Virus record (IMG/VR): IMGVR_UViG_2541047828_000002 | Span: 1-39,138 of that record | DNA from: a virus | Lineage: Duplodnaviria; Heunggongvirae; Uroviricota; Caudoviricetes | Direction: 5' to 3' (one strand) | DNA length: 39,138 nucleotides | Part shown: in pieces, positions 37,815-39,138 of the stretch | How the letters are laid out: every line of letters starts with the position of its first letter | Numbering within the stretch: the first letter of the stretch is position 1 | The notes under the pieces: generated by a model | The model's database searches: none | Told to the model about the DNA's origin: nothing | The model's input: only the letters and a program-made list of their open reading frames with translations | Position numbers and translations under genes: made by a program

Positions 37815-38364
37815 AACGAACCTCTTTTAATAAAGTCAAGTGATAATGAAAGATAAATATTGTAAACGAAAAAACACTGGACTGGAACATATATCTCTGC
37901 TTGTAATTTACCCAAGATAATTTTACTAACGCAGTCATAATTCGTTCATGTATACCAGATGAAAGTACATGTTCTATGAAATAGGGTTTTGCCTGGAGTT
38001 TGAAGGTTTTTAACGATTATACCTGTTTAATCGACTCCCCATGTTTTTTGACATTATCCACCGCACACGATACTGGATGCCAGGTAAACTGATTTGCTGG
38101 CATAAAGTCACTGAGAATTTTTTACCAACAATATCTTGCCACATCTTTTCCCGCACAGTTTCGGCAATAGAATCAGCGGGCAGCGGTCATCAATATTCAC
38201 CAGACATTGATCTGCCGCACTATCTGACCGGTGTCCTGCTGAGAATACTAATTTCTTTTTTTGCAAGTGCTGTCCAATCATGATTGGGGGGGGGCGGCGG
38301 AGTTGAAACCGCAGGTACGTTGTATGCAATAACGTGCTGCGGTTTAATCTTATCAATTGAATAC

Positions 38365-39138
38365 TCAAAAATTAGGTGAGTAACGGACCGGGGACATAGC
38401 TCCTTTTTTTCTTAATTCATCTGGTATTTTTTTTCCAAGATAAAGATTTGCTATTTCAGGTGGGGCTTCTCGACCTTCAAAACCATAGCGAGAACTTTGT
38501 GTTGCCTCAAAGTCAGGATCCTCGTCCCAGTATTTCATCGTAGGGAAATTTTCACGTGTTGATTTGAGCCATTTATCAGCAATAAAAACCCCTCGAACGA
38601 TACCCCTTACAGTGGCAAGAATGACTTCTGCTTGACTGGCGCGCGAGGCATTGATGCGCCAGCTAAATCGAACCGCATCATAAAGCTCTGAATCCTTTGC
38701 ACTTCTGTTAACGGAAATCATTAATGCTTTATGATGAAATGTTATGGTTTCGGGTTGATATGTTGCTATCAACTCTTTGACATGCGCGGCGCCGAATTCA
38801 TTGCTGCCAGCACCATTCATGATATTCGTTAACCCAGGGTAGGCATCAATAAGTGCTGCTTCAACTTCGTACGCCGTCTTTTCATCAGTCATTCCATGTC
38901 GATGGATTACATGGATAACTTCAAGTCCCGCTAATCTTATTTCTCTGATTTGCTTTAGCTTGTTGCTCAGTAACTCGTCATCATCAGCCGCTGCCACTTC
39001 ACCGCGCATATGGGCAAATACGCGGTTACCTTTGCCTTTCCCTACATAGAAGGTGCTTCCGTCCCTAGGATCAATCAATCGGTATACATACCAGCCAAGG
39101 TGTTCAATTACTCCAGAAGGAAACTCAGTAATATCCAT
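38365..39138 (-). CDS. GIY-YIG nuclease-domain protein with uncharacterised C-terminal domain
   Basis: N-terminus [28 protein letters not shown]...YEVEAALI...NIMNG fits the GIY...YIG, R, E, N pattern. The ATG lies on the last 3 nt of the window, so the true N-terminus could extend beyond it. Confidence 0.55.

Follow-up and report, generated by a model that had tools for sequence, protein, structure and literature searches.

The 257-codon gene that closes the right end of the window (the whole 39,138-nt stretch of prophage DNA analysed here) is, judged by its sequence, the E. coli orthologue of CMoRE (PD-T4-3), and nothing about the gene itself is new. We consider it very probable that this orthologue is cargo at the right end of a thrW prophage and would act by the published mechanism, and that it is flanked by a non-coding spacer containing a chance open reading frame (ORF) and neutral homopolymers. 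An initial annotation had described a GIY-YIG nuclease gene carried as prophage cargo with an implied role in defence; the gene corresponds to PD-T4-3/CMoRE, a defence against T-even phages that is validated in the literature. The relevant features of the window are as follows.

1..1254, proA-like gene, left end of the window, at thrW
1369-1444, tRNA-Thr
1459..2622, minus strand, integrase
14658..14984, lambda-family holin gene (PF05106, E 2e-23)
36747..37814, minus strand, acyltransferase-3 family O-acetyltransferase, 355 aa (PF01757, E 7.5e-25; phrog_3333, E 8e-41)
37815..38364, unannotated spacer linked to the acyltransferase module and not to CMoRE
38108..38368, minus strand, 86-codon ORF with TTG start, judged a chance ORF
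38256..38262, T7 homopolymer of variable length (7, 8 or 9)
38286..38294, G9 homopolymer in the non-coding spacer, length variable
38306..38345, conserved 40-bp hairpin (AAACCGCAG...CTGCGGTTT), 20 nt 3' of the CMoRE stop
38365..39138, minus strand, CMoRE/PD-T4-3 gene, 257 aa, single-gene type IV restriction endonuclease (5hmC/5ghmC-dependent)
38368..38781, minus strand, C-terminal domain that senses the modification (about residues 120-257, with Y127), placed by alignment to 9U75/9U7U
38794..39138, minus strand, N-terminal GIY-YIG domain region (PF22945 on residues 28-110; residues checked against PMC12923530)
38974..38985, minus strand, acidic autoinhibitory loop, residues 52-55 (DDDE), read from the sequence

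The 257-aa protein matched the PADLOC model for PD-T4-3 (PDLC04031) with an E-value of 3.3e-140, covering positions 1-256 of 256, and phrog_5356 with an E-value of 1e-142. It aligned end to end with the structures of the enzymes from E. coli O157:H7 (PDB 9U75; E 4e-172, 253 of 257 residues identical) and APEC O1 (PDB 9U7U; E 4e-150, 218 of 257). The ATG at 39138 occupies the last three bases of the window, and the start and the context beyond this position had been marked for checking. Since the RefSeq CDS is identical and the PADLOC and PHROG profiles as well as the crystallised proteins align from residue 1, this ATG is the true start of a complete ORF without upstream run-on; RefSeq annotates the same 257-aa CDS in the DS26-1 locus (99.8% identical). 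The native promoter of CMoRE lies outside the window. The N-terminal GIY-YIG domain proposed in the initial annotation was recovered in a Pfam search, in which PF22945 (LEM-3_GIY-YIG) scored 54 bits against a cutoff of 27 over residues 28-110; the generic GIY-YIG family PF01541 remained below its cutoff (13.7 bits, threshold 22.6). The C-terminal domain had been called unrecognised. This holds for Pfam, which gave no match to the C-terminal ~140-150 aa, but not for the crystal structures, which show a published 5hmC-sensing domain.

PD-T4-3 was first found in E. coli ECOR68 (Vassallo et al. 2022) and was renamed CMoRE by Liu et al. (Nat Commun 2026; PMC12923530), the source of structures 9U75/9U8D and 9U7U/9U7Z. 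CMoRE alone makes T2, T4 and T6 plate about five orders of magnitude less efficiently, and this defence is not abortive. The protein binds and cuts DNA with 5hmC or glucosyl-5hmC but neither binds nor cuts DNA with C or 5mC, and T4 whose cytosine is unmodified escapes (PMC12923530). Cleavage occurs as CN11/N9G and leaves 3' overhangs of 2 nt. The GIY-YIG nuclease that forms the N-terminal domain has one more tyrosine than usual (GIYxY-YIG, namely Y17, Y19 and Y31), and a 15-residue acidic loop autoinhibits the enzyme; replacing four consecutive acidic residues of the loop by alanine de-repressed cleavage of unmodified DNA (PMC12923530). The enzyme is a tetramer that needs V92 and L96 for assembly, and in its C-terminal domain, which binds 5hm-dCTP, the 5-hydroxyl is contacted by the Y127 main chain. 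Defence from the native promoter was weaker for the APEC O1 allele, and promoter strength varies between alleles (PMC12923530). Furthermore, deletion of PD-T4-3 in the clinical isolate NILS69 led to sensitivity to Tevenvirinae, and the cloned gene protects K-12 (10.1101/2024.12.20.629700). A Capnocytophaga homologue (48% identical) degrades modified T4 DNA and spares unmodified DNA (PMC12366544). Cleavage of 5hmC/5ghmC DNA or protection from T-even phages has been reported for the O157:H7, APEC O1, Klebsiella, ECOR68 and NILS69 alleles. Gene, structure and mechanism are already published (Vassallo 2022; Liu 2026).

All defining features of CMoRE/PD-T4-3 that a sequence can reveal are present in the window protein. 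It contains the three tyrosines of the GIYxY-YIG motif (GWYVY...FYVG) and has kept R39, presumably the catalytic arginine, R80, the tetramer-interface residues V92 and L96, and Y127. Four substitutions separate it from the O157:H7 enzyme (D55E, V164A, K169Q and H197N), none of which hits a residue named as functional. As D55E is the sole difference in the N-terminal domain, the window protein retains the catalytic Arg and Glu; the other three substitutions relative to 9U75 fall in the C-terminal domain. The acidic loop reads DDDD in O157:H7 and DDDE in the window and in APEC O1. We infer the likely activity and mechanism of the window allele from experiments on 85-98% identical proteins. A T8 run (38427-38434; A8 on the coding strand) lies inside the CMoRE codons G-K-K-I near the C-terminus, and two surveyed records match the CMoRE gene with a length off by one base (773 and 775 nt).

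According to the published mechanism, the C-terminal domain would bind the 5-hydroxymethyl- or glucosyl-hydroxymethyl-cytosine of incoming T-even DNA, and the N-terminal nuclease, within the tetramer, would then cut with the reported CN11/N9G geometry and 2-nt 3' overhangs. The acidic loop over the active site would hold the enzyme off unmodified host DNA, and the defence would be direct and non-abortive. Next to the gene, the 550-bp stretch between CMoRE and the acyltransferase would be a non-coding spacer, in which the hairpin would mark a prophage module boundary and probably end transcription. The 86-codon ORF would be a chance frame, and the G9 and T7 runs would be neutral, slippage-prone homopolymers. 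That the GIY-YIG gene is instead a selfish homing endonuclease without a role in defence is almost certainly wrong: the homing-endonuclease family phrog_314 does match weakly (E 0.002), and homologues in jumbo phages are annotated as homing nucleases, but the full-length match goes to PD-T4-3/CMoRE and to no homing enzymes. Moreover, the C-terminal domain binds 5hmC and not a specific DNA sequence, cleavage depends on modification with little sequence specificity, and deletion in a native host gives phage sensitivity.

McrBC, GmrSD and PvuRts1I/AbaSI are type IV modification-dependent enzymes that act on hmC DNA. By description, they resemble CMoRE in joining a sensor of modified cytosine to a nuclease and in targeting T-even DNA, whereas CMoRE differs from them in its GIY-YIG fold, the lack of an NTPase, the small single-polypeptide tetramer and the acidic autoinhibitory loop. 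The type IV modification-dependent class is named in PMC12923530, which also gives UvrC as the nearest structure to the CMoRE nuclease. The N-terminal GIY-YIG domain of UvrC and LEM-3/ANKLE1 (PF22945) share the catalytic fold with CMoRE, in line with the Pfam match above threshold, but CMoRE is distinguished from UvrC/LEM-3 by the extra tyrosine (GIYxY), the 15-residue acidic insertion, the modification-sensing C-terminal domain and a function in defence rather than repair. Among the CMoRE enzymes themselves, that of O157:H7 (9U75, 9U8D) is of the same length as the window protein and shares its motif, tetramer-interface and 5hmC-contact residues and acidic loop, as well as the location at a prophage end beside an AraC-family regulator gene. 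Apart from the four substitutions, it differs in having pinE as 3' neighbour in place of the acyltransferase module and the 550-bp spacer. The APEC O1 enzyme (9U7U, 9U7Z) belongs to the same two-domain fold family and has the same DDDE loop, but carries 39 substitutions, mostly in the C-terminal domain.

CMoRE was found in 838 of 5426 complete E. coli genomes (about 15%; at least 96% nucleotide identity), including O157:H7. Its 3' neighbour is pinE in O157:H7, directly the tail-fibre assembly gene in BE311, IS1 in Z0117 and the acyltransferase module in the window. On the 5' side it is flanked by a tRNA-Ser fragment and an AraC-family regulator gene, by an AAA ATPase, or by a Dcm methylase paired with a type II restriction enzyme. 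No partner gene is conserved. Because the neighbours on both sides vary between genomes, the distribution fits a putative self-contained single-gene cargo cassette in the variable stretch that separates the tail-fibre genes from the attachment site. A megablast search with the locus returned no useful match among cultured-phage genomes, and tblastn against phages returned homologues of 39-45% identity from jumbo phages only. Full-length homologues, annotated as GIY-YIG or homing endonucleases, occur in the virulent Serratia phages Moabite, 2050HW and Kodama and in Pseudomonas phage OBP, where they may serve in phage-phage competition.

The window prophage is integrated at thrW and combines a lambdoid early region with a contractile tail. 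CMoRE is its last gene on the phage side, at the right end of the structural genes, which agrees with the position given in the initial annotation. The acyltransferase had also been placed correctly beside the tail fibre genes: the O-acetyltransferase, identified by PF01757 and phrog_3333, comes after genes for a glycine-rich tail fibre and for tail-fibre assembly. It is neighbouring cargo and stands outside the nuclease system. An A8 run at 37713-37720 is A7 in DS26-1, and loss of the base fuses the acyltransferase with an ORF of 80 codons upstream of it; the RefSeq protein of DS26-1 has 396 aa instead of the usual 355 aa. A frameshift in the window acyltransferase was considered on this basis and rejected, as the 355-aa form with a GTG start is the usual one in RefSeq and DS26-1 is the exception. 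The A8/A7 difference represents a further variation in homopolymer length in this AT-rich cargo region.

The features beside CMoRE are non-coding and most likely neutral. The spacer segment 37940-38364 is present in 50 genomes, compared to 838 for CMoRE. In IAI1 and O8:H8, the same acyltransferase is followed by the same spacer, which is there joined to a different gene of 215 aa; the spacer can therefore be assigned to the acyltransferase module. Homology common to all CMoRE contexts is limited to the last ~60 nt before the stop. An Rfam search of 36400-39138 (E up to 1) found no family and one sub-threshold snoRNA match only, and a promoter and terminator scan of the same region showed no excess, with site counts at or below shuffle expectation. 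We predict that the spacer is non-coding, since it is unannotated in 52 records, keeps no frame, matches no protein or Rfam family and shows no excess of promoters or terminators. Its core (about 38085-38260, 160-180 bp) shows no variation, not even in IAI1 and O8:H8, whose spacer copies are 5-9% divergent as a whole, and contains an imperfect inverted repeat. The predicted fold of 38085-38265 is modest compared to shuffles (z -1.9 and -1.55), with too little variation for a covariation test. Recent recombination or an unrecognised element could account for the invariance.

Directly to the right of the G-run lies the hairpin, composed of AAACCGCAG-CACGTCGTATGCAAGAACGTG-CTGCGGTT and stable on both strands (fold z -2.6 and -3.2). 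It is kept 3' of CMoRE in all contexts examined and is also present at other cargo junctions: CT01 has it where the restriction enzyme gene adjoins dinI, and Z0117 has a copy on the upstream side of CMoRE. The Rac prophage of K-12 carries it at its right end. A 55-nt version gave 3712 hits, up to six per genome, spread over 2799 of the 5426 E. coli genomes. This element is likely a bidirectional terminator or module-boundary element, and it may act as a terminator, as a recombination hotspot for cargo exchange, or as both. A perfect 14-bp palindrome (CCAATCATGATTGG, 38274-38287) borders the G-run and includes the first two G of the run; IAI1, O8:H8 and the junction between restriction enzyme and dinI in the CT01 phage have kept it as well.

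The initial annotation had coupled the nuclease gene to the small ORF through an ATGA overlap. The start codon is TTG, so that the overlap reads TTGA, and an in-frame ATG does not occur before codon 30, past the C-run. No Shine-Dalgarno or purine-rich ribosome-binding site was seen before the TTG, and the ORF had no match in Pfam, NCBIfam, PADLOC or PHROG and was annotated in none of the 52 RefSeq records containing the spacer. Among the 12 loci having both CMoRE and the spacer, it spans 86 codons in five and 29-49 codons in seven, where it is truncated because the G-run and the T-run change length. Since the homology common to the CMoRE contexts ends at ~60 nt, the ORF straddles a recombination joint, with the CMoRE-linked hairpin on one side and the acyltransferase-linked spacer on the other. 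An ORF of at least 86 aa arose in 6% of shuffles of the 586-nt stretch. The coupling proposed earlier was not upheld, as the ORF begins with TTG, belongs to no family, has lost its frame in 7 of 12 loci, is missing from ~94% of the genomes with CMoRE and crosses a recombination junction. We judge it a chance ORF and not a gene.

The alternative that this ORF is a real accessory gene, for example for a regulator or an immunity factor, coupled to the nuclease and switched by C9/G9 slippage, appears extremely improbable. It would draw on the TTGA overlap of the CMoRE stop with the ORF start and on a tract that varies among strains and sets the ORF length to 86 or 29-49 aa. However, a search of 5.8 billion proteins yielded just two singleton ORF calls, both on the spacer; the spacer is missing in ~790 of the 838 genomes with CMoRE, a co-occurrence of ~6%; and cloned CMoRE works alone. 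In addition, the frame is also broken by the second variable run, the T-run, and the start codon, the absent Shine-Dalgarno sequence, the missing family match, the crossing of the hairpin-spacer junction and the frequency of such lengths in shuffles all point the same way. It is somewhat easier to imagine, although still unlikely, that the spacer is the remnant of a decayed gene in which frameshifts built up at homopolymers: stitched minus-strand frames look protein-like (e.g. ADSIAETVREKMWQDIVGKK...FMPANQFTWHPVSCAVDNVKKHGESIKQV), and the centre of the spacer is well conserved. The stitched 116-aa peptide was searched against the same 5.8 billion proteins with a method that requires shared exact 5-residue words and may miss distant relatives; it matched just two singleton ORF calls on the spacer itself and no intact ancestor, and the pseudogene assignment was rejected. 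A non-coding spacer with a chance ORF remains our preferred reading of the sequence between CMoRE and the acyltransferase.

The G9 homopolymer, in which slipped-strand phase variation had been suspected, consists of exactly nine G, as first recorded. Across strains the tract is not invariant but ranges from G6 to G10: G10 in FREC5 and AR_0369; G9 in the window, 268.2, EC01307 and a15; G8 or G8C in DS26-1, CT01, FDAARGOS_1277, CFSAN064035, WP5 and EBJ001; G7 in Q5 and PD7; and G6 in IAI1, with GGTGGG in O8:H8. At the CT01 restriction enzyme-dinI junction, the equivalent sequence is interrupted (GGTGGGGGA). For a stretch of 39 kb, about 0.27 G/C runs of at least nine are expected, and a single G9 is not remarkable; a second G9 in the holin gene (14901-14909) is stable. 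In CT01, a 43.7-kb circular copy and the chromosomal copy both have G8 and differ by one base in the T-run, and many CDSs of the circular copy are annotated as frameshifted. Some of the length differences may be assembly or sequencing errors, because they fall in assemblies full of frameshifted CDS annotations. No promoter-like site was found at the G-tract in the scan, and a contingency locus is not indicated, as the only ORF across the tract has no homologues and is not conserved. The suspicion of phase variation is borne out as far as the tract differs in length between strains, but no conserved gene or recognisable promoter depends on it. Neutral homopolymer drift or assembly error is the best explanation of the G-run variation, although the length differences could in principle reflect a real switch.

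Such a switch would make the G-run and T-run control the O-acetyltransferase, turning surface acetylation on and off and altering phage receptor recognition, which we regard as very unlikely. Other systems offer a precedent in O-antigen modification that is phage-encoded and phase-variable, and both tracts, whose lengths vary among strains, are located ahead of the acyltransferase on the coding strand and travel with the gene. Yet they are 440-480 nt upstream of its start codon, the scan detected no sigma-70-like promoter on the acyltransferase strand of the spacer, and the best hexamer pair found by hand around the T-run has a spacing of 13 nt only. Moreover, some of the length differences come from the assemblies rich in frameshifted CDSs, and the interruption of the run in O8:H8 and at the CT01 junction (GGTGGG) indicates that a long run is not conserved. 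A switch acting on the O-acetyltransferase through a long 5' leader, read-through from CMoRE or an unrecognised small product is very unlikely indeed; if true, it would toggle surface acetylation and the susceptibility of the host to other phages right beside a restriction nuclease. Neutral variation of both homopolymers stays our preferred explanation.

In RefSeq, the protein is still named "LEM-3-like GIY-YIG domain-containing protein", and the practical value of the present assignment lies in correct annotation, which bears on the choice of phages for therapy and on host-range prediction. Records of the window prophage should list an anti-T-even restriction system beside an O-acetyltransferase, together with a KAP-NTPase candidate for defence elsewhere. 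The latter is a KAP-family P-loop NTPase of 443 aa on the minus strand (13029..14360; PF07693, E 9e-71), located between antiterminator Q (12632..13000) and the holin, with a full-length match to the PADLOC candidate defence family PDC-S20 (E 4.5e-177); it represents a second cargo gene or candidate defence gene of this prophage. Beyond the right end of the window, DS26-1, O157:H7 and BE311 have a fragment resembling the 3' half of a tRNA-Ser(CGA) gene, located ~195 nt upstream of where CMoRE starts; ARAGORN called no tRNA on it. The expected closing thrW repeat follows 2.3 kb past the fragment, on the far side of the gene for an AraC-family regulator and an IS fragment. This arrangement gives the right end of the prophage a composite look, and it may derive from a phage with tRNA-Ser as its integration site.
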